Sequence record: NC_070981.1
Origin: Escherichia phage EK010
Length of the DNA: 64,000 nucleotides
Reading direction: 5' to 3' (one strand)
The notes under the pieces were generated by a model. It was not told where the DNA came from. It did no database searches and saw only the letters and a program-made list of their open reading frames with translations. Positions 6,623 through 33,963 of this stretch are shown here, piece by piece. A program made the position numbers and the translations under genes. Each line of letters begins with the position of its first letter. Position 1 is the first letter of the stretch.

Positions 6623-6646
6623 GACGCTCTTCTTGAGCGTCTTTTT
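6623..6646 (+). terminator. intrinsic terminator T1
   Basis: GACGCTC/GAGCGTC stem, TTTTT. Confidence 0.75.
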
Positions 6647-6650
6647 GTCT

Positions 6651-6671
6651 GCCGCCTTTGTGCGGCTTTTT
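6651..6671 (+). terminator. intrinsic terminator T2
   Basis: GCCGC/GCGGC stem, TTTTT. Confidence 0.7.
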
Positions 6672-6752
6672 GCGTAGCTAGTGATGCCTAAAGGGAACTC
6701 CCTTTGTGAATCATTGGCATGGTTCAATTCCTATTGGATGGTCATTTGACCG

Positions 6753-6776
6753 GGCCTTTAACGAGGCCTCTTTTTT
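6753..6776 (+). terminator. intrinsic terminator T3
   Basis: GGCCT/AGGCC stem, TCTTTTTT. Confidence 0.55.
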
Positions 6777-6800
6777 AAGAGTCTTTACGAGGATTCTTAA

Positions 6801-6932
6801 ATGAGTGAGGTCATGTTCACTCTTTCAGGTCGCCCCGTCTTCGGATGGGGCTTTTTTATGCCCGTAAAACAGGGGGTAGTAAGTTCTGATAACGACAGCC
6901 CAGCTACTTTTGACATTGACTATTTATTATGA
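6801..6932 (+). CDS. possible short leader ORF (43 aa) spanning terminator T4
   Basis: ATG with GAGGA SD; overlaps start of 6910 gene in another frame; below track size cut-off. Confidence 0.2.
   Translation: MSEVMFTLSGRPVFGWGFFMPVKQGVVSSDNDSPATFDIDYLL
6832..6857 (+). terminator. intrinsic terminator T4
   Basis: GCCCC/GGGGC stem, TTTTTT. Confidence 0.7.
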
Positions 6933-7963: not shown

Positions 7964-8190
7964 AAATTAATCTCTTCTCTGTAGTTGTTACCAAAAAGCT
8001 CAGTGAGTTACGTCCTGGCGATGTGTTCCGTTTACCAACTAACTCTGAAAATGTCTACCTAAAGACAGACACTAGACTTAACGATATGCATCGTGTGGTT
8101 GGTCTTAGTCAGGGGACACTGTTCCAATTACAGGAAGACCATGAAGTTATCCCTGTACCTGATGTTCAAGTAACTCATATCGGTGGTTAA
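7960..8190 (+). CDS. small protein, paralog family A (LRPGDxF ... EDxEVxPVP)
   Basis: Track ORF; shares motifs with 13142-13390, 9245-9496, 11500-11754. Confidence 0.55.
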   Translation: MKINLFSVVVTKKLSELRPGDVFRLPTNSENVYLKTDTRLNDMHRVVGLSQGTLFQLQEDHEVIPVPDVQVTHIGG

Positions 8191-8499
8191 ATGATAAATC
8201 TTAATATCCGTAGAGGTTTTTACCCTAAAGTCTCTTTCCGTGCTCAACTGGAGCAGCTTCCTGGTGTAACTTTCTTAGAGTTTACCTACAGCTGCGGTCG
8301 AGACAATCCCGGTTTCACTGTCACAATTGAATCTGGTTGGTTTAATATGACCATCATGCCAGAAGATGTTAACAATGCACTCCGTGGTATTAAGTCCGGC
8401 GGCCTAAACCTTTTAGCTCCCAAGGTGGGTGATGAACTTCTCACTGTGATTCGTAATGGTGTGGATAAAACAGCTAAGATGGTTGAAGCTCTTAAGTAA
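8191..8499 (+). CDS. hypothetical protein (102 aa)
   Basis: Track ORF. Confidence 0.55.
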   Translation: MINLNIRRGFYPKVSFRAQLEQLPGVTFLEFTYSCGRDNPGFTVTIESGWFNMTIMPEDVNNALRGIKSGGLNLLAPKVGDELLTVIRNGVDKTAKMVEALK

Positions 8500-8507
8500 C
8501 ATCGACT

Positions 8508-8580
8508 TATAGCCCTTGTGTTTATCAGAGGGCTATGTGAGGGTGTTCCTCAATTAACTATAATCTCAACGCCATATGGC
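8508..8580 (+). repeat. conserved intergenic hairpin element, copy 1 (TATAGCCCTTGTG..TATCAGAGGGCTATGTGAG ... CTCAA.TAAC)
   Basis: About 32/34 identical to copy at 13395; 8-bp inverted repeat ATAGCCCT/AGGGCTAT. Confidence 0.6.
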
Positions 8581-8728
8581 TCACCGCTAGGGCGAGACTT
8601 GTCTCAAACATCCGGTGATAGACTAAAACCTGTTAATTTTCGAACAGCTTTCCGATATGTAGGGGTATGTATCGGTTTGGGATAGAGAACAATCTAGGGG
8701 TAGAGAGTTCTCGACAGTTAGTACAAGC

Positions 8729-8762
8729 GGAAGCCTTAACGTGTAGGGCTTCCCTTTATATT
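8729..8762 (+). terminator. intrinsic terminator
   Basis: GGAAGCC/GGCTTCC stem followed by CTTTATATT. Confidence 0.45.
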
Positions 8763-8801
8763 AACTGGCAATCCTGCCTTCACCAACAAAGAGAGAACGA
8801 T

Positions 8802-8942
8802 ATGAAGAAGACAACCAAACGTATGAACCGTCCTGAGCGTATGGAAGCAGTGGCAAATGGTGCTCTGAAGATTGAGTCTGCCATGCTTCGTCTGACAACT
8901 AACATCCGTAAGCGTCAAGGTGATTGGTTCTACGGTGGATAA
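8802..8942 (+). CDS. hypothetical small protein (46 aa)
   Basis: ATG with AAGAGAGAA SD after terminator; track ORF 8667-8942 would span the terminator. Confidence 0.4.
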   Translation: MKKTTKRMNRPERMEAVANGALKIESAMLRLTTNIRKRQGDWFYGG

Positions 8943-9025
8943 TTAATAATGGGCTGCCCTTAGGGGTGGCCTTTGTTGTTTTAATTAAGGGACAACTCTT
9001 ACTTAAACTAACAAGAGAGGTTGTT

Positions 9026-9235
9026 ATGAACATTCGTTTAGTTCGTGAGCAAGATGGCAGACAGGTTGTGCTAGGTGAGATTATCCGTGCTGCACACAAC
9101 CTACTCCCTGAAAAAGATGAAACTGTCTGGGTTGATGGAGAGTATCGCCGAGTGTTGTCGGTTGTTAAGTCCTTTGAACCAAAGCGTAACAATGAAAAAG
9201 CTCTTACCTGCTGGTTTGAGGTTAATATTACATAA
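9026..9235 (+). CDS. hypothetical small protein
   Basis: Internal ATG of track ORF 8924-9235 with AGAGAGG SD. Confidence 0.45.
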   Translation: MNIRLVREQDGRQVVLGEIIRAAHNLLPEKDETVWVDGEYRRVLSVVKSFEPKRNNEKALTCWFEVNIT

Positions 9236-9244
9236 GGGGTTGAT

Positions 9245-9496
9245 ATGTTCAATCGTTTATTTGACCGTAAAGGTCGCACTGACATACTGATACCTTCTAT
9301 CGGTGTGCCAGCTAAGTTCGGTGAGATACGTGCTGGTGATTTCTTCATGGAATCAGGTCGTCTTCATCTGAAGATCAACCTTGAACACGCTGTTGAAATC
9401 CTTAGTGATGATAAGCCAATCATCGGCACTTCGGTGTACAGTGCAAACCATACTGTATTTGTTGTCAATGTTCAGATTGAGATTAAATCACCATGA
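9245..9496 (+). CDS. small protein, paralog family A
   Basis: Track ORF; FGEIRAGDFF ... LHLKI motifs. Confidence 0.5.
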   Translation: MFNRLFDRKGRTDILIPSIGVPAKFGEIRAGDFFMESGRLHLKINLEHAVEILSDDKPIIGTSVYSANHTVFVVNVQIEIKSP

Positions 9497-9750
9497 AGAC
9501 AAACTTCCGAGCAGCAGTTATTACTAAAGTAATAGCAGTTGGTGATGTAATGATGCAAGTTCCTCTGAACACTCGTTACATTGCCATTGACCGAATGGGT
9601 TATGTGTGGGCTTGGAAGTGGAAGCCTACTTACAATGAACTGTTCGACGAATACCAGTGCGCTGGGCCTTACATGCCAACGTTGGTTGGTGTGTATGAAG
9701 ACGGTCCTTGTCGTACTCCTCAGTTAATTGAACTACCGGCGTGTGCTTAG
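9493..9750 (+). CDS. hypothetical protein (85 aa)
   Basis: Track ORF. Confidence 0.5.
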   Translation: MKTNFRAAVITKVIAVGDVMMQVPLNTRYIAIDRMGYVWAWKWKPTYNELFDEYQCAGPYMPTLVGVYEDGPCRTPQLIELPACA

Positions 9751-9751
9751 T

Positions 9752-9916
9752 ATGATTAAATGGTTCAAGCGTCTTGTGCACCTGCATGATTGGGTAATCC
9801 TTGAAAAATATACGCTGAAGATTACTGACGATCACGGTGGGACAAAGCACAAAGGTCTTCGCTATATTATGCAGTGTAAAGTGTGTGGTCATGTTACCAA
9901 GCGTGACATGATCTAA
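9752..9916 (+). CDS. small CxxC protein, tandem paralog 1 (MIKWFKRL...)
   Basis: Internal ATG of track ORF 9728-9916; near-identical N-terminus to next gene. Confidence 0.5.
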   Translation: MIKWFKRLVHLHDWVILEKYTLKITDDHGGTKHKGLRYIMQCKVCGHVTKRDMI

Positions 9917-9925
9917 GGGATCATT

Positions 9926-10090
9926 ATGATTAAATGGTTCAAGCGTCTCTTTCATTTCCATGAGTGGGAAGATCTTTCTACTTATGAATTGACGATCACA
10001 AATAAACTTACTGACAGAGAGCGACAAGGGTTGCGTATCTACTCTCGCTGTAAAGTGTGTGGTCTGCACAAGAAAACAGATCTGATCTAA
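9926..10090 (+). CDS. small CxxC protein, tandem paralog 2 (MIKWFKRLFHFHEW...CKVCG)
   Basis: Hand-translated 54-aa ORF below track cut-off; paralogous to flanking genes. Confidence 0.5.
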   Translation: MIKWFKRLFHFHEWEDLSTYELTITNKLTDRERQGLRIYSRCKVCGLHKKTDLI

Positions 10091-10098
10091 GGGGTGTT

Positions 10099-10308
10099 AT
10101 GTTCTTTCGTAAGAAAAAGCCCGAAGATTCTGAGTGTAAGCATGAGTGGGTGATCACTGAAAACCTACATATCACTCACGCTAAAGACACTCCAGTCGAG
10201 AGAAAAGAGTCTCGTGTATCTCGTATCTGTAAGCGCTGTTTGAAAATAGAACAGCATAAAGTTCCCGGTCATATTGGTCATGATGTGGCCTTGCGTATTT
10301 TCAGTTAA
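10099..10308 (+). CDS. small CxxC protein, tandem paralog 3
   Basis: Internal ATG of track ORF 10057-10308; shares HEW ... CKRC pattern. Confidence 0.5.
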   Translation: MFFRKKKPEDSECKHEWVITENLHITHAKDTPVERKESRVSRICKRCLKIEQHKVPGHIGHDVALRIFS

Positions 10309-10317
10309 ATAAATATA

Positions 10318-10395
10318 GCACCCTTAGCTCAATTGGATTAGAGTAGCGACCTTCTAAGTCGTCGGTTACAGGTTCGAATCCTGTAGGGTGCACCA
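10318..10395 (+). tRNA. tRNA-Arg (anticodon UCU)
   Basis: Hand-folded cloverleaf: 7-bp acceptor stem GCACCCT/AGGGTGC, anticodon loop CUUCUAA, T-arm ACAGG-TTCGAAT-CCTGT, encoded CCA. Confidence 0.85.
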
Positions 10396-10413
10396 ATTAA
10401 CGTAGGAGGGCAT

Positions 10414-10740
10414 ATGAGCTGGGGTGGTGTAATTACCTTAACCTGTATCTTTATCGCCTGTGTAGCTCTTACAGGCTGCGTACAGCATCGTCCTGATGGA
10501 TGGTGTGCATTATCGGTAGAAGGTGTCTGTGTTTCCCGTTGGCATAGCGGGGAGAAGATTCCTAGTGGTGAAATTGATATGCGTTATGCTGGTGCTTCTT
10601 GTTCTAATGGCGGTGCTGTTGACGAGAAGGCTTATGCAGAGCGTAACATGGAAACCCAAGGTGATTGGTCACGTTATGACTTCATCTCCCGTGGTGTACA
10701 GTGTAGTGGCTCTGTGACAACAACAGGTAAGGAGTGGTGA
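10414..10740 (+). CDS. Cys-rich lipoprotein (lipobox LTGC)
   Basis: Signal peptide VITLTCIFIACVALTGC; track ORF. Confidence 0.6.
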   Translation: MSWGGVITLTCIFIACVALTGCVQHRPDGWCALSVEGVCVSRWHSGEKIPSGEIDMRYAGASCSNGGAVDEKAYAERNMETQGDWSRYDFISRGVQCSGSVTTTGKEW

Positions 10741-10741
10741 T

Positions 10742-10996
10742 ATGTCTGGTCATTATTCTGATACGAAAGCTTTACTGGAAACAGCGGCTCAGACTTCATG
10801 CCAACAGCAAGTAAAAATGTTGTTGGTTGATATTCGTAATCTGCGTTGGCTTATCAAAGAAGGTCATATCGGAAACGCTGCCTATTACAACGTTAAAGAT
10901 ATCCTTCGCCGCCAGCACTTTCTTATCCACGGAAACGTGGTCACTCGCAACTATCAATGGAACGGTCAATGGTTACAGCAGCGTATGTCCTCCTGA
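10742..10996 (+). CDS. hypothetical protein (84 aa)
   Basis: Track ORF. Confidence 0.5.
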   Translation: MSGHYSDTKALLETAAQTSCQQQVKMLLVDIRNLRWLIKEGHIGNAAYYNVKDILRRQHFLIHGNVVTRNYQWNGQWLQQRMSS

Positions 10997-11223
10997 TTTA
11001 TGTTATTGGTTGGTGGTTGGCAGCCATTGTAGTTAAATGGTGCTTCAAAACCAATACACTCTACAACTTCTTCCATTCCTCATGGAGTGGTAAGCCTGAT
11101 GAATACTCTATTTGGACGGTGATATTCTTCTGGCCTTTTATGCTGATCTTTATCCTCTTCTTACCTTTACTTATGTTGATAGGTTGGGTAATGGATAAGG
11201 TGACAATCTTTGTTACTAAGTAA
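10957..11223 (+). CDS. membrane protein (2 predicted TM helices)
   Basis: Track ORF; hydrophobic segments; start uncertain. Confidence 0.45.
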   Translation: MERSMVTAAYVLLIYVIGWWLAAIVVKWCFKTNTLYNFFHSSWSGKPDEYSIWTVIFFWPFMLIFILFLPLLMLIGWVMDKVTIFVTK

Positions 11224-11414
11224 TATCGTGAAGGATTCTTACGAGAGTCCTTTGAGATAGGACTTCAGATCTCCTATCAACTAACCGCTCAATGTTGAGC
11301 ATTTTATTCACATAAGCCCCTCATGGGCTGGGTTTAATGCCGGTAAGCGTTTTACGCTATCCACTACAGCATCGGATTGTTAGGTCTTACATGCAACATT
11401 AATTAATAGGATAT

Positions 11415-11444
11415 GGGAGGATTCGTCCCCTCCCCCTATTTATG
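11415..11444 (+). terminator. possible terminator hairpin
   Basis: GGGAGG/CCTCCC stem, weak T-tract. Confidence 0.3.
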
Positions 11445-11499
11445 AAAGCATTCTTCCGAGAGTTCTCTCATAAATTGGTCCATAACTAAAGGTGGTAAA

Positions 11500-11754
11500 A
11501 TGAAAGTTAACAAACCAGCCAGTAAGAACGCAATACCCCTCAGTGCTTTGCGACTTGGGGATTGCTTCATGTACCCTAACAGTGAAGATGGTGATTTGTA
11601 CATCTTACTGTCTACCGAGTTCTCAACTCGACTCTGCATCAAGGGCGCGGACGAGCATAGACTTGTAGCCTGTCTTAACACAGGCCGAGCGACAGCTCCT
11701 CGTAAAGATGTTGCTGTTATTCCTATTAAAGCTGAAGCAACTATTAAGGAGTAA
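11500..11754 (+). CDS. small protein, paralog family A
   Basis: Track ORF; AAAGGTGG SD; LSALRLGDCF motif. Confidence 0.55.
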   Translation: MKVNKPASKNAIPLSALRLGDCFMYPNSEDGDLYILLSTEFSTRLCIKGADEHRLVACLNTGRATAPRKDVAVIPIKAEATIKE

Positions 11755-11757
11755 GCA

Positions 11758-12021
11758 ATGGCTCTGACCATTAACAAAACTCGTATTGCGGATATTCCTC
11801 TAATGGTGGCAGGTGTTTCTATCGGTTCTTTCTTTACTTTGAAAGAAGATAAAGAACAAACCATTTACATGAAAGTGAACAAAAGCTCTAATGGTTGTGA
11901 ATACCACCGAGCTGTGTCTATGCAGAGTGGATACGTTCGTAATATGGCATCCAATATGCCAGTTGGTATTGTGTTTGAATCAGCAACTCTGGATTTAGTG
12001 GAGAAGATCAGTGAAACATAA
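11758..12021 (+). CDS. small protein, weak paralog family A member
   Basis: Track ORF. Confidence 0.5.
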   Translation: MALTINKTRIADIPLMVAGVSIGSFFTLKEDKEQTIYMKVNKSSNGCEYHRAVSMQSGYVRNMASNMPVGIVFESATLDLVEKISET

Positions 12022-12268
12022 AGACCATCCAAAGTATGTATCGCTATTGGATGCAGCCCTTCTCTGCACGTACTGGCTCCTTATTATTATTGGGGTTGTG
12101 CTAATGATATGTGGTGTCGTACAGTTCTTTATGTATCTACAAAGCGTGTTAGATATCACATTAGCTAACACTATAATCCTTGCAATTCTCGGTGTTATTG
12201 CTTTCTGTGTGATTGTCTTCTTCGTTTGGTTATCTATGAACGACGACTCTACACACACCTTCTATTGA
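12011..12268 (+). CDS. membrane protein (2 TM helices)
   Basis: Track ORF; strongly hydrophobic. Confidence 0.5.
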   Translation: MKHKDHPKYVSLLDAALLCTYWLLIIIGVVLMICGVVQFFMYLQSVLDITLANTIILAILGVIAFCVIVFFVWLSMNDDSTHTFY

Positions 12269-12281
12269 CAGGAGAAAATCA

Positions 12282-12398
12282 ATGAGAAAACGTGCCTACT
12301 CTGAAGAAGAAATGGTTAACTTGAAAGGCTTCGGTCAACGACAGCCTGACGGCTCAGTTATCTGGTACATTAACGGACAGAAAAAGGCAAGTAAATAA
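12282..12398 (+). CDS. possible small protein (38 aa)
   Basis: ATG with GGAGAAAA SD; below track cut-off. Confidence 0.3.
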   Translation: MRKRAYSEEEMVNLKGFGQRQPDGSVIWYINGQKKASK

Positions 12399-12467
12399 GC
12401 CCTCTTCTCTCCTCCTTTTAACTACTATGACGCCTCTCTTTTCGGCGCTGTTTTGGAGCTTCAAAAA

Positions 12468-12881
12468 ATGGCTGGGAAATTCCCCAACGTAAGCAAGAAA
12501 TTGGCTTACCTCACGTATAAAGAAAACATTGATCTTCTGGTCAAGCTATATCCGGCTTCATTCAACAAGCAATTCCCTCTTCCTTTGGAGCTTAATGTCC
12601 ACAAGGAAATCGCCCGCAAGACTGGTTGGTCAGCGGAGAAAACAAGCATGGTGCTCAACATCTGGACTACTCGTATGGAGTATGTGATGATGGCCTGTAG
12701 CACTGGTAAACGCTTCAAGCTGCACTCTGTAGCTATGAAGATTCATAGCCCTATTGACCCTGAGCCGATGGCTGGCTTTATTAGCCGTCTGAAATCTTTC
12801 CGTGATCGTGGTCGTGTAGTGAAATTCAAGCATGACTTCTCTTACAAGTTTGGATACGAAGCGTTCCAATTTGTTGTTTAA
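12468..12881 (+). CDS. hypothetical protein
   Basis: ATG inside track ORF 12453-12881. Confidence 0.55.
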   Translation: MAGKFPNVSKKLAYLTYKENIDLLVKLYPASFNKQFPLPLELNVHKEIARKTGWSAEKTSMVLNIWTTRMEYVMMACSTGKRFKLHSVAMKIHSPIDPEPMAGFISRLKSFRDRGRVVKFKHDFSYKFGYEAFQFVV

Positions 12882-12908
12882 TCTCTCTTTAATGTAAGGT
12901 AATAAAAC

Positions 12909-13142
12909 ATGTCTAAAGTTAGCGCAATTGATGCCATCCGTCAGCCGTTCCAGTTCCAGTCTAAATCAACTCAGACCCACAGCGAACCGCGTCAGATTCG
13001 TCTGGGCGGTACAGAGAAGTCTGTGTTTGATATTGCGAAAAACAAAAGCGTAACCATCGTCGAAGGCGGCGAGCTGGTTAATGTTTCCCATCGTATCCGC
13101 ACTGGCAAAACTGCCAAAGATCGTGCTAAGAAAGGTCTGTAA
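12909..13142 (+). CDS. hypothetical protein (77 aa)
   Basis: Track ORF. Confidence 0.5.
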   Translation: MSKVSAIDAIRQPFQFQSKSTQTHSEPRQIRLGGTEKSVFDIAKNKSVTIVEGGELVNVSHRIRTGKTAKDRAKKGL

Positions 13143-13390
13143 TGCAAATTGCTGATAAAATTCCTAAACAAACTTCCAAAATAAAGGATCTTTATTCAGG
13201 GAGTGTGTTCCGCTCTGTTAAATATCCAGAAGAGTTCTTTATCAGAGTTCCTTCCATACAGGCTGGAGGCCACTCTAAACCAGTAACAGCTGCAAATTTA
13301 AGTACAGGACATCTATACCGACTGGATGAAGATCTGGAAGTATACCCTGTCCCAGCAGCAATCCTCCGCTTCGATGGAGCCACAGAGTAA
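13142..13390 (+). CDS. small protein, paralog family A
   Basis: Track ORF; LDEDLEVYPVP motif shared with 7960-8190. Confidence 0.55.
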   Translation: MQIADKIPKQTSKIKDLYSGSVFRSVKYPEEFFIRVPSIQAGGHSKPVTAANLSTGHLYRLDEDLEVYPVPAAILRFDGATE

Positions 13391-13394
13391 CATC

Positions 13395-13465
13395 TATAGC
13401 CCTTGTGAGTATCAGAGGGCTATGTGAGCTATTCTGGCTCAACTAACCTAAACTTAATTTAATCT
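13395..13465 (+). repeat. conserved intergenic hairpin element, copy 2
   Basis: Same sequence module as 8508-8580, again directly after a stop codon. Confidence 0.6.
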
Positions 13466-13586
13466 TACCCGTATGGGGCCGATGCTAGGGAGAGGGATAA
13501 TCCTCGAACATCCGTCGGATAGAATATTTTAAGAGCAGGTTATCCACAGATATTGGGTGATATCTATTTAATTGGCCTTAAAGCTT

Positions 13587-13611
13587 GGCTCTCTTAGGAG
13601 AGTCCTTTTTT
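13587..13611 (+). terminator. intrinsic terminator
   Basis: GGCTCTC/GAGAGTCC stem with one bulge, TTTTTT. Confidence 0.55.
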
Positions 13612-13631
13612 AAGTTCAAAGAAGAGGTTGT

Positions 13632-13799
13632 ATGGATAATAAGTTGAAAGCTAAATTCTTATTGGCAGCAATCTTTATTTGCTTAGCCACTGTGGGGTTT
13701 GCCCGTGTGACTTCCTTTGTATCTTGTGAGTTAAGCAAGAATAACAGAGGGTCTTATGACTGGCTAACCAATCAATGTGACAAACAGGAGAAGTTATGA
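13632..13799 (+). CDS. small exported protein (55 aa, signal peptide)
   Basis: ATG with GAAGAGG SD; stop overlaps next ATG; below track cut-off. Confidence 0.4.
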   Translation: MDNKLKAKFLLAAIFICLATVGFARVTSFVSCELSKNNRGSYDWLTNQCDKQEKL

Positions 13800-14158
13800 A
13801 CCTACGCCCCATTAAAGGCCATGTAAACCTGTCTACGCTTCATAAAGTAGCAAATGATTTAGGTGGTATGGATGAAGAAGATCTGAAGCAGAATTTGCTC
13901 TGGATTGCTAATGGCATCAAGGCGGCAAAGGCCAAAATGGCTCGTGCACAAGGTAAACTAAAAGCGAATAAATATCTTATTCGCCGTCGTAATACCTTAC
14001 CTCAGGATGTGGTAAGTTTAGCTTTATCAGGATATAAAGCAGCAGAGGTAGAGCTTCAGGAAGCAGAGTTTGAAAAGATGCGCTTCCAAGAGAACTATCG
14101 AAACTTCCGTAGTATTGACTACATTCGCAAGTCTCTGAGCCTTTTGGTAGCAGAGTAA
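13796..14158 (+). CDS. hypothetical protein (120 aa)
   Basis: Track ORF. Confidence 0.55.
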   Translation: MNLRPIKGHVNLSTLHKVANDLGGMDEEDLKQNLLWIANGIKAAKAKMARAQGKLKANKYLIRRRNTLPQDVVSLALSGYKAAEVELQEAEFEKMRFQENYRNFRSIDYIRKSLSLLVAE

Positions 14159-17154: not shown

Positions 17155-17781
17155 ATGAGCTTGTTAAGAGATTTTCAACACTATTATTGTGGAACATGGA
17201 TTGCTCAGCGATCACCTGATGGTAAAAACCTCCCTCTATATGTGCTTGATGTTCGTCAGCAAGGTAACTTTGATATCGACGACTACTCACACGACGCTGA
17301 AATGTCTTTAGTGTTTGAGGCGGAACGCTGGACTAAAAACTCTGAAGGTCAGTTTGAACGTCAGATTGTTAGTAATATCCCAGTGTTTGATCACAGCCTC
17401 ATTCTAGAGTCTCCAGATGTAGGATACCTTCAGCATGGTAATAACATGGTGAGCTGGACCCATATCAACCCTGTTCGTCAGCGAGCTAAAGGCTTGATGG
17501 GGAATAAACTTCGTGGTGCTGCACCTTCTCTCGGACGTTCGATTCCGGGTGATTTGGTGTACAACTTGTTTAATCCAGAGTTTGAAGGGTTGGTTACTCG
17601 TTTCATCTATATCAACCCTGTCGATGGAAAAGTGTATTACAAAGGGGCTTACGTTGGAAACGTGCTTCTTGAAGCTGGCTATGGCGACAACGGTCGCCAA
17701 TCTTTAAACCTTCTGGAGAAGTTCAAGCATATTTCTTCAGACCTGTCATCATATAATGTAGAGTTGGTGGAATCATTATGA
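17155..17781 (+). CDS. hypothetical protein (208 aa)
   Basis: Track ORF. Confidence 0.6.
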   Translation: MSLLRDFQHYYCGTWIAQRSPDGKNLPLYVLDVRQQGNFDIDDYSHDAEMSLVFEAERWTKNSEGQFERQIVSNIPVFDHSLILESPDVGYLQHGNNMVSWTHINPVRQRAKGLMGNKLRGAAPSLGRSIPGDLVYNLFNPEFEGLVTRFIYINPVDGKVYYKGAYVGNVLLEAGYGDNGRQSLNLLEKFKHISSDLSSYNVELVESL

Positions 17782-33954: not shown

Positions 33955-33963
33955 TAATGTATA
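33955..33963 (+). promoter_or_regulatory. TAATGTATA motif, candidate phage-sigma promoter element
   Basis: Exact 9-mer 33 nt upstream of ATG 33996. Confidence 0.4.

Follow-up and report, generated by a model that had tools for sequence, protein, structure and literature searches.

A twice-occurring intergenic hairpin of Escherichia phage EK010 as the probable first stem of a structured intercistronic RNA module

The subject here is a short hairpin, H1, of Escherichia phage EK010 (sequence record NC_070981.1), as found within a 64,000-nucleotide stretch of that phage's DNA, the whole of which is termed the window. H1 is present twice in the window, each time just past a stop codon and each time on the + strand, and very probably it is not a free-standing element but instead the first stem of a structured, non-coding, intercistronic module, 240 to 300 nucleotides (nt) in length, which itself exists as two related copies. 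These copies are found at 8494-8801 and at 13386-13631, i.e., in intergenic regions (IGs) termed here IGa and IGc. As to function, the modules may, tentatively, be viewed as punctuating the phage's early transcript, with H1 insulating or protecting the upstream cistron and with a shared core recruiting some common factor, one that would set either processing or read-through of a terminal hairpin.

The hairpin and its module

A sequence-only reading of this DNA had called attention to H1, and its basic description of the hairpin holds. That is, the 34-nt segments 8508-8541 and 13395-13428 are identical at 32 of 34 positions, with the stem beginning one base after the start of this conserved block. 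When the full 64 kilobases (kb) are scanned for the pattern ATAGCCCT-N12-AGGGCTAT, with up to three mismatches allowed, only 8509-8536 and 13396-13423 are returned, both on the + strand, versus a chance expectation of 0.19 matches. Folding of both copies confirms the proposed stem of 8 base pairs (bp) and loop of 12 nt (8 to 9 bp as folded; -15 to -18 kcal/mol with flanks; z = -2.6 to -3.3). Both copies also lie, as had been described, just after a stop codon, in each case within 10 nt, the conserved block beginning 9 nt (8508) and 5 nt (13395) past stop codons 8497-8499 and 13388-13390, respectively. So too is it the case that H1 is not a simple intrinsic terminator, if by the latter is meant a G+C-rich stem-loop plus U-tract: No T-run follows either copy, GTGAG instead being found there, and H1 has no entry in the terminator scan, with a separate hairpin at 13587-13611 being the one which is of that kind. 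What did not survive is the suggestion that both copies follow genes of a single paralogous family, as the two upstream proteins (from 8191-8499 and 13142-13390) are matched by BLASTP at only E = 0.32 and belong to different PHROG families.

The features making up the first portions of the two modules are as follows, where R1 refers to a covariance model of the core, and where IGa-type and IGc-type copies are described as type a and type c.

8494-8499, + strand: AGTAAC, the conserved 5' boundary of IGa, containing the stop codon TAA (8497-8499) of the upstream gene.
8509-8536, + strand: H1a, an 8-bp stem (ATAGCCCT/AGGGCTAT) with a 12-nt loop, then conserved GTGAG (8537-8541); nearly invariant among 15 type-a copies.
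8549-8558, + strand: box a, CTCAATTAAC, of which AATTAAC (8552-8558) would form helix P1a with GTTAATT (8632-8638), as predicted by minimum-free-energy folding of 8545-8640.
8571-8623, + strand: core a, consisting of P2 at 8571-8580 (GCC-AUAU-GGC), P3 at 8581-8586 with 8613-8618, and P4 at 8594-8605 (GAGA-CUUG-UCUC); R1 53.9 bits, E = 2e-11.
8587-8593 opposite 8606-8612, + strand: internal loop of core a, CUAGGGC opposite AAACAUC.
13386-13391, + strand: AGTAAC, the 5' boundary of IGc, within which is the stop codon TAA (13388-13390); the similarity block with phiEco32 begins here, at 13386.
13396-13423, + strand: H1c, with the stem of H1a and a 12-nt loop, then GTGAG (13424-13428); 16 sequence variants across phages.
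13444-13465, + strand: 5' strand of helix P1, predicted to pair with 13521-13542 (minimum-free-energy fold plus RNAalifold) and overlapping the box CTCAACTAAC (13438-13447).
13468-13523, + strand: core c, consisting of P2 at 13468-13477 (CCC-GUAU-GGG), P3 at 13479-13484 with 13513-13518, and P4 at 13492-13505; R1 82.1 bits, E = 7e-19.
13485-13491 opposite 13506-13512, + strand: internal loop of core c, CUAGGGA opposite GAACAUC.

Among relatives the lower stem of H1 is kept while its top varies, with 12-nt loops, CUCC, UUCU, and, in Salmonella phages, UACG and UCCG all seen, along with an extended stem with UUCG (phiEco32, SU10). Hairpins of the UNCG class are those of phiEco32, SU10, NJ01, and Paul (CUUCGG), of pSal01 (UACG), and of SE131 (UCCG); both window copies and every type-a copy have 12-nt loops instead. 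Folding is retained in each of the 16 variants (-12 to -15.6 kcal/mol), with U·G exchanged for U-A, C-G, or A-U. That H1 would be acting as RNA is supported by this retention of the stem as loops become UNCG, by the compensatory changes, and by G·U pairs that are such on the + strand only.

Both modules have the same succession of parts, i.e., AGUAAC, then H1, then GUGAG, then a three-way junction (P1, P2, and P3/P4), then one or two hairpins with G-rich loops, and finally a terminal hairpin. The element had been described as about 70 nt long, but the similarity runs on, with a second shared block at 8571-8623 and 13468-13523 (53.9 and 82.1 bits). Within that block P2 is a 3-bp hairpin (GGC/GCC, GCC/GGC, or CCC/GGG), P3 is a 6-bp helix (CACCG/CGGUG, CCGAUG/CGUCGG, or UCGGUG/CGCCGA), and P4 is a GAG..CUC helix with variable tetraloops. 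Separating P3 from P4 in both copies is an invariant 7x7 internal loop, CUAGGGN/NAACAUC. Its two N positions, which form a non-Watson-Crick pair flanking P4, covary (A..G 12 times, C..A 9 times, A..A once), and it is just such exchanges, A..G for C..A or A..A, that are expected of an isosteric non-Watson-Crick pair. By inspection this loop fits none of the kink-turn, the sarcin-ricin or loop E motif, or the T-loop.

The three-way junction is returned, independently, by minimum-free-energy folding of single sequences from both copies. Alignments of 33 distinct copies (15 type a, 18 type c) plus about 10 metagenomic variants display RNA-like variation. Across the 20 distinct sequences of the core alignment pairing is seen in 98.1% of cells, versus 35-51% if partners are slid by 1 to 3 columns, and covariation is 0.323 versus 0.118 in shuffles, none of 500 of which reached the former value. 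The pairs of core c are 98-100% kept, with compensatory changes. With the full IGc model (H1, P1 through P5, and terminator; 52 pairs) 98.2% pair versus 38-49% when slid, and ten pairs have changed on both sides versus 2.9 +/- 1.4 in shuffles, again more than in any of 500 shuffles. Some 73 G·U cells in the IGc model would read as A·C on the opposite strand, and therefore the fold belongs to the + strand, i.e., to the sense of the operon.

The sequence-only reading had, in addition, a box following both hairpins. Such boxes are indeed found on the + strand, at 8549-8558 (CTCAATTAAC) and 13438-13447 (CTCAACTAAC), with a related, one-mismatch copy (ATCAACTAAC/TCAACTAACC) at 11276-11286. The 10-mer CTCAAYTAAC by itself, however, is barely above chance in the window (18 matches with one mismatch versus 11.2 +/- 3.2 expected). 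In the modelled fold the box of IGc serves as 5' strand to P1, a long helix that closes the junction and of which the main 12-pair segment is 97% paired and a 4-pair outer segment 90% paired, with three pairs changed on both sides (e.g., E. coli phages have UCUUAA/UUAAGA where SE131 and 7-11 have UCUUUU/AAAAGA). In IGa, pairing of P1a closes the three-way junction in the minimum-free-energy fold of 8545-8640. The earlier picture of a hairpin plus a box thus was correct as far as it went but incomplete: The hairpin is only the first stem of a module, the box in the second copy is a strand of a helix, and that copy contains as well a double DnaA box, as considered below.

Small protein-coding genes were considered and rejected as an explanation for these modules, as no open reading frame (ORF) is conserved in frame and length. 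That is, the longest, at 19-55 codons, are not the same from phage to phage, every frame is interrupted by stops, and module insertions and deletions (indels) among relatives are not divisible by three. A search of the window against Rfam, both at gathering thresholds and at E up to 10, yielded nothing over H1 or the core, with tRNA-Arg alone passing; the only intergenic match at E <= 10 is STnc100 at 13515-13616, scoring 21.2 bits versus a gathering score of 47.

Distribution and setting within the early gene cluster

Window positions 8000-14000 are 99.9% identical to Escherichia phage E20-1, the record of which is in the reverse orientation, and partial matches are found to approximately 100 other phiEco32-like podoviruses (Gordonclarkvirinae: Suseptimavirus, Kuravirus, and Nieuwekanaalvirus). 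Absence from related genomes would have spoken against the hairpin, and instead homologs of both intergenic regions are present in those approximately 100 genomes, with IGa and IGc 80-99% conserved and with similarity blocks starting exactly at AGTAAC; toward phiEco32 and EP335 nucleotide similarity begins exactly at 8494. AGTAAC, AGTGAC, or AATAAC precedes the hairpin in all copies, including those in which this motif is not a stop codon. A neighbouring 405-amino-acid protein, by comparison, is only 41-46% identical between genera. This conservation, in an element that is not a terminator, is in keeping with the earlier view of H1 as functional.

Within the window R1 has precisely two matches, both + strand (8571-8623 and 13468-13523), and it matches twice per phiEco32-like genome but once per 7-11-like genome. 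The latter group includes Salmonella phage pSal-SNUABM-01 (Grimontviridae), in which IGc is the sole nucleotide-level match in 8.5 kb and is syntenic, lying upstream of the endolysin and amidoligase block. R1 had no match when applied to the syntenic regions of three more distant phages (GAP52 of Cronobacter, P59 of Proteus, and LAh_9 of Aeromonas), and pattern scans of viral and metagenome contigs returned phiEco32-like and 7-11-like phages only, plus a few chance matches within coding sequence. There is one weak, partial match to the core loop, GGCTAGGGGGAG...CCTCAAACATCC (R1 E = 0.15), at L019 5110-5144 of an unrelated viral contig (IMG/VR UViG_3300005805_008608); it is intergenic, just after a terminator, and represents either chance or a distant relative. 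RNA-handling proteins are encoded nearby in relatives both with and without the RNA, i.e., a ProQ/FinO-family protein in pSal-SNUABM-01, an RtcB ligase in Proteus phage P59, and RNA ligase 2 in GAP52 and LAh_9 (loci L004 1151-1879, L025 1747-2874, L024 17320-18285, and L026 3456-4379).

The genes in the portion of the window surrounding the hairpins are all on the + strand. The right end of the genome lies some 90 nt from window position 1, such that the hairpins are located 8.5 and 13.4 kb inside of the early gene cluster. Published work puts the early promoters of both phiEco32 and 7-11 at the start of that cluster (PMC8948821; PMC4331800), and the functional cluster of phage 7-11 is described as one long operon (PMC4331800). 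Three intergenic regions here are unusually long, these being IGa (8500-8801), IGb (11224-11499), and IGc (13391-13631), all three of them conserved throughout this phage group and with IGa and IGc each opened by a copy of the hairpin. The third of these regions can be described as follows.

11224-11499, + strand: IGb, a third conserved structured intergenic region, starting with AAGTAATATCG and a UACG-loop hairpin right after a stop codon.

Within IGb is TCAACTAACC (11277-11286), and closing the region is a terminator-like hairpin (11415-11434). Its first 55 nt, past the first 5 alignment columns, are identical in 9 of 9 phages compared, and RNAalifold predicts a long-range helix of about 23 pairs (about 28 nt per strand) which joins both of its ends. 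IGb may belong to the same class of module as IGa and IGc, but with a different core, as the R1 model has no match there. No earlier description of these three structured intergenic RNAs was found in the searchable literature.

The modules' far ends, past their cores, consist of the following.

8652-8712, + strand: two hairpins, 8652-8675 and 8685-8712, both with loop UAGGGGUA (TAGGGGTA at 8660 and 8695).
8729-8762, + strand: terminal hairpin of IGa, GGAAGCC...GGGCTTCC, then CTTTATATT, a weak terminator-like end; the next gene runs from 8802.
13549-13564, + strand: hairpin P5c, with stem GAUAU(U)/(G)AUAUC and loop GGGU; SE131 and 7-11 lack it.
13587-13611, + strand: intrinsic terminator with a 7-bp stem (GGCUCUC/GAGAGUC), loop UUAG, and C plus U6; the next gene runs from 13632.

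The stems of 8652-8712, as read from the sequences, have changed in a compensatory manner between Suseptimavirus and Kuravirus copies (GAGAAC/GUUCUC versus GGAGAC/GUCUUC). The recurring G-rich loops, i.e., 8660-8667, 8695-8702, and the GGGU of P5 in IGc, may represent a shared ligand or instead a ribosome-binding-site-like decoy. The terminal stem of IGa has a 58-nt insertion in most of the Kuraviruses compared, though not in NJ01, Bas92, IMEP8, or MN05. The terminator of IGc, which is canonical and found 20 nt before the next start codon, is 100% paired in 18 of 18 sequences, with UUCG and GNRA loop variants and with exchange among C-G, G-C, and U·G.

The sequence-only reading had allowed that H1 might be a middle-promoter element, and this does not hold up. 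A sigma-70 consensus scan found no promoter in IGa, IGb, or IGc. The promoter element of gp36, the phiEco32 phage sigma factor, is tAATGTAtA (PMC8948821), and no copy of it with one mismatch or fewer is found inside 8494-8801, 11224-11499, or 13386-13631. A TATAAT at 8559-8564, just past box a, is not conserved in relatives. Perfect gp36 elements (TAATGTATA) are located elsewhere, at 33955 (+), 40802 (+), 40731 (-), and 50937 (-), and probably mark middle and late promoters; a one-mismatch version, TAATGTAGA, at 17754 (+), lies 24 nt before the amidoligase gene. As there is no detectable promoter in these regions, and as published early promoters are found at the start of the cluster, polymerase must pass the IGc terminator for the downstream block to be expressed.

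Other observations concern nearby sequence. Four terminator-like hairpins with T-runs (6623, 6651, 6752, and 6832) are found on the + strand within the 230 nt of 6623-6851, a multi-terminator barrier upstream of the gene block leading to IGa. Conserved non-coding islands are present at 8951-8981, where a strong terminator (GGGCTGCCC..GGGTGGCCT and then a T-run) shares 91% identity with phiEco32, and at 12269-12452, a 185-nt intergenic region sharing 83% identity with phiEco32. Lastly, 9751-9825 and 9925-9999 are a tandem duplication (174-nt spacing, 71% identity), each copy opening with ATGATTAAATGGTTCAAGCG, and there is an exact 16-nt repeat, TGTAAAGTGTGTGGTC, at 9875 and 10049; these tandem and 16-nt repeats probably represent paralogous small ORFs with a CxxC motif.

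What the modules may do

The reading tentatively preferred, though it has somewhat less than an even chance of being right, is that of punctuation in cis. The module would be transcribed within the long early mRNA. H1, as a very stable hairpin with no U-tract, would shield the module's fold from the translated upstream cistron and would also protect the 3' end of that cistron following a downstream cut or termination. One common factor would dock at the core, which is shared by the two copies and is the same in both and across two phage families; an RNase, some early protein of the phage, and RNA polymerase (or a Nus-type elongation complex) all are candidates. That factor would then decide between stopping at the terminal hairpin and reading through into the next block of genes. 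In IGc the layout is attenuator-like, with the three-way junction (13444-13542) directly upstream of the terminator (13587-13611), whereas the terminator of IGa is weak.

Several points weigh against such punctuation. The sequences compared are closely related, such that their compensatory changes are few independent events (type a versus type c; E. coli versus Salmonella phages). P1 is well supported in IGc alone, with P1a (AAUUAAC/GUUAAUU, 6-7 bp) being weak (-4 to -11 kcal/mol), lacking covariation, and weakened further in several relatives. The terminal hairpin of IGa has a poor U-tract (CUUUAUAUU), and control of read-through is much less evident there. No conserved, competing antiterminator pairing was found, by inspection only; the only candidate, UAAGAG/CUCUUA in E20-1, is missing from phiEco32 and from the Salmonella phages. 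The promoter scans were simple consensus scans, which a weak or unusual promoter could escape. Finally, no transcript-end mapping for this phage group was found in the literature.

The modules could instead be purely signals for processing and stability, with no role in termination, which is possible though not especially likely. RNase III would cut within the roughly 20-bp P1 or the P3/P4 stack, or RNase E would cut within the C-rich, G-poor linker following H1, leaving H1 as a protective 3' hairpin. The position of H1 right after stop codons, its great stability, its lack of a U-tract, and its UNCG loops in relatives all are consistent with such processing, as is the recurrence of the module between early cistrons. 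CUUCGG-type hairpins, moreover, are common in phage intergenic regions and stabilise T4 transcripts (PMC8948821). Substrates of RNase III of the T7 type are double-stranded over about two helical turns, often with an internal loop, and P1 in IGc, spanning 19-21 positions with 3 mismatches, is compatible in length with such a substrate. H1, with its stem of 8-10 bp, is not, being too short for a classical RNase III substrate, and so the earlier suggestion, if taken as RNase III cutting H1 itself, is not supported. A site for RNase III or RNase E elsewhere in the module, or one for a regulator, stays a candidate. Nor does P1 have support in IGa, and the invariant 7x7 loop with its covarying non-Watson-Crick pair exceeds what nuclease sites usually need.

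Two further alternatives involve a segment of IGc that is shared with the bacterial host:

13524-13557, strand left unassigned: host-derived segment with a double DnaA box (TTAAGAGCA-GG-TTATCCACA) at 13529-13548, overlapping the 3' strand of P1 (13521-13542).

This segment is identical at 32 of 34 positions to sequence (E. coli locus L027 1201-1234) that immediately precedes nrdD, as seen with 5423 of the 5426 E. coli genomes searched, and it is the only match for IGc, per genome, in that search. No host match of at least 23 nt exists for IGa or IGb in the same 5,426 genomes. A double DnaA box consists of the 9-mer TTATCCACA along with, 2-3 bp upstream and in the same orientation, a weaker 9-mer. 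Positions 13540-13548 match TTATCCACA at 9 of 9, and 13529-13548 (TTAAGAGCAggTTATCCACA) differs from the host's nrdD double box (TTAAGAACAggTTATCCACA) at one base. The double box of the nrdD leader is DnaA-bound as seen with chromatin immunoprecipitation sequencing (PMC11317965). GGTTATCCACA is invariant in every IGc copy, those of the Salmonella phages included, and the host leader element CTGTGGATAACCTGTTCTT is conserved across Enterobacterales. In the hosts themselves, CTGTGGATAACC(TGTTCTT), located 10-25 nt upstream of the nrdD ribosome-binding site, is kept from Escherichia to Yersinia, Serratia, and Proteus (80 Enterobacterales, L028-L107); being longer than a single DnaA box, it suggests a conserved regulatory site in the nrdD 5' untranslated region (5'UTR).

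As RNA, the + strand of IGc is antisense to that 5'UTR, from about -11 to -44 relative to the AUG, with complementarity stopping about 6 nt before the GGAG ribosome-binding sequence. The modules can be pictured as trans-acting, stable non-coding RNAs, freed by 5' processing plus termination, with the IGc RNA pairing with the nrdD 5'UTR and altering anaerobic ribonucleotide reductase and with the core binding an RNA chaperone or other protein. This is unlikely, though not without points in its favour. The predicted energy of the 34-nt duplex is -50.2 kcal/mol versus -11.8 for the competing, intramolecular P1 (with whole-length folds of IGc against the nrdD leader, shuffles scored as well, so that it is the short 34-nt duplex alone that is meaningful). 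Of 62 enterobacterial nrdD leaders compared, it is that of E. coli which the E. coli phages match best. The terminator provides a U6 tail at the 3' end like that of Hfq- or ProQ-bound small RNAs, and a related Salmonella phage encodes the above-noted ProQ/FinO-family protein. Further, a scan of 10 large + strand ORFs from the 15.4 to 45.1 kb interval turned up no ribonucleotide reductase gene, and the phage therefore probably depends on deoxyribonucleoside triphosphate (dNTP) synthesis by its host. The DNA-level double DnaA box, however, accounts for 20 of the 34 nt, P1 sequesters half of the antisense stretch, the Salmonella-phage versions differ among themselves outside of GGTTATCCACA, and IGa and IGb lack the host match.

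A bolder, and rather unlikely, variation is that H1 plus the core are a new class of phage regulatory RNA, either put-like in acting on polymerase or a protein-binding site, with IGc in particular a dual-coded device of host takeover. Its DNA would be a copy of the nrdD DnaA operator, serving as DnaA sink or replication-coupled roadblock, and its RNA would be a 34-nt nrdD antisense. Were that the case, then a virulent phage would be rewiring the anaerobic dNTP synthesis of its host and timing the switch from early to middle expression.

Quite improbable is antitermination of the nut/rrn type, with H1 as boxB and CTCAAYTAAC as boxA, recruiting NusB/NusE (or with direct, HK022 put-like action) such that polymerase resists Rho and terminators. 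A hairpin, followed 10-25 nt on by a C-rich box, is found in all three of the long intergenic regions, long untranslated stretches of operon need protection from Rho, and there is a terminator which must be passed. The consensus for boxA is GCUCUUUAACAA for rrn and CGCUCUUA for lambda, and at best, as seen with the Kuravirus IGa box CCUCAUUAACUU, there is agreement with that of rrn at 8 of 12 positions, which is not convincing. The IGc box (GCUCAACUAACC) requires an indel for alignment with boxA and lacks the U-run, and it is a strand of P1 with compensatory changes. The box motif alone is not enriched in the window, and the H1 loop varies freely, which argues against any boxB-like recognition of that loop.

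It is still less probable that the element acts as DNA, i.e., as a DnaA-dependent origin, a DnaA sink, or a protein roadblock, with the inverted repeats functioning as DNA. On its side are the invariance of a perfect DnaA box in every IGc copy, including those of Salmonella phages, an arrangement identical to the DnaA-bound nrdD site, an adjoining AT-rich stretch, and further boxes. Across the 64 kb a perfect DnaA box (TTATCCACA) is found just once more, at 8460-8468 (-), inside the gene ending just before IGa and about 40 nt upstream of the first hairpin; one-mismatch boxes are found at 8934 and 13631, and IGb holds the near-boxes TTATTCACA (11304) and CTATCCACT. One-mismatch boxes are, though, only mildly enriched in the window (27 versus 18.2 +/- 4.0), IGa has hairpin and core but no DnaA box inside the module, and G·U pairs on one strand, UNCG and GNRA tetraloops, and the covarying non-Watson-Crick pair all point to RNA. 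The DnaA box of IGc probably is itself real, and a DNA-level role would account for the double box, though not for H1 or the core. Least credible of all is a promoter for the host sigma-70 or phage gp36 holoenzyme: Notwithstanding the TATAAT just after box a and weak -35/-10-like hexamers with 18-nt spacing that can be drawn in IGc, as read from sequence, the consensus scans are empty there and in IGa, the TATAAT is not conserved, spacing varies due to indels, and a start at that point would exclude the 5' strand of P1, which covaries with its partner.

Significance and comparison with known systems

The phiEco32-like phages are a model for sigma-factor takeover and are used for therapy, and only promoters have been mapped in their long early operon. 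Conserved intergenic RNAs are candidates for a missing layer of control, whether as transcript punctuation, as terminator read-through, or as small RNAs. Two of the three RNAs share an invariant core which persists into a different phage family, and should that core bind polymerase or another protein then it would represent a new RNA family and possibly a compact, portable regulatory part. The antisense copy in IGc of the DnaA-bound nrdD operator offers, in addition, a testable link among a virulent phage, DnaA, and the dNTP supply of its host.

Of known systems, the C(UUCG)G or UNCG intergenic hairpins of the T4 type resemble H1 in being short, very stable, without a U-tract, and located between phage cistrons; H1 in fact is literally a CUUCGG, UACG, or UCCG hairpin in phiEco32, SU10, EP335, and 7-11-like phages. 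Known roles of UNCG intergenic hairpins are transcript stabilisation and the nucleation of folding (PMC8948821). H1 differs from these in that its conserved parts are instead the lower stem and the flanks (AGUAAC, GUGAG), in that its window loop is 12 nt rather than a tetraloop, and in that it is always coupled to a specific, downstream three-way-junction RNA.

The early RNase III sites of phage T7 (R0.3-R1.3) are repeated hairpins found after stop codons in an operon transcribed by the host polymerase, cleavage of which leaves a protective 3' hairpin. The modules are similar in consisting of repeated, related, non-terminator hairpins after stop codons in an early operon. The T7 sites, however, are single, irregular hairpins of about 20 bp or more, while H1 is 8-10 bp, and the only helix of such length here, P1 of IGc, closes a three-way junction.

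With lambda nut, rrn leaders, and HK022 put there is in common a structured nascent RNA upstream of terminators, a hairpin plus a C-rich box, and two copies per genome (compare putL/putR and nutL/nutR). Unlike in those systems, there is no convincing boxA and no conserved boxB-type loop, and the modules are 8-13 kb from the start of the cluster rather than beside a promoter; the modules are not known to be similar in sequence to put. Leaders of the riboswitch or attenuator type also have, as does IGc, a three-way junction with invariant loop nucleotides and then an intrinsic terminator just upstream of genes, but here there is no Rfam match, no conserved antiterminator was found, and IGa is without a good terminator.

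The segment 13529-13548 has its counterpart in the double DnaA box of E. coli nrdD (and in the double boxes of datA, oriC, and DARS type), TTAAGAGCAggTTATCCACA versus TTAAGAACAggTTATCCACA with identity over 32 of 34 nt, though it is present in a virulent phage, is in the opposite orientation with regard to transcription, and is inside an RNA helix the other strand of which is co-evolving. As with processed, 3'UTR-type small RNAs and phage RNAs such as OOP and DicF, the IGc RNA would be non-coding, bounded by a terminator, and complementary over some length to a host mRNA near the ribosome-binding site. Its complementarity nevertheless extends over 34 nt, far beyond the usual seed, and overlaps a protein-binding DNA site. 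The modules are classed here, based upon their sequences, as a kind of phage intercistronic structured RNA, one that is present in two related copies.

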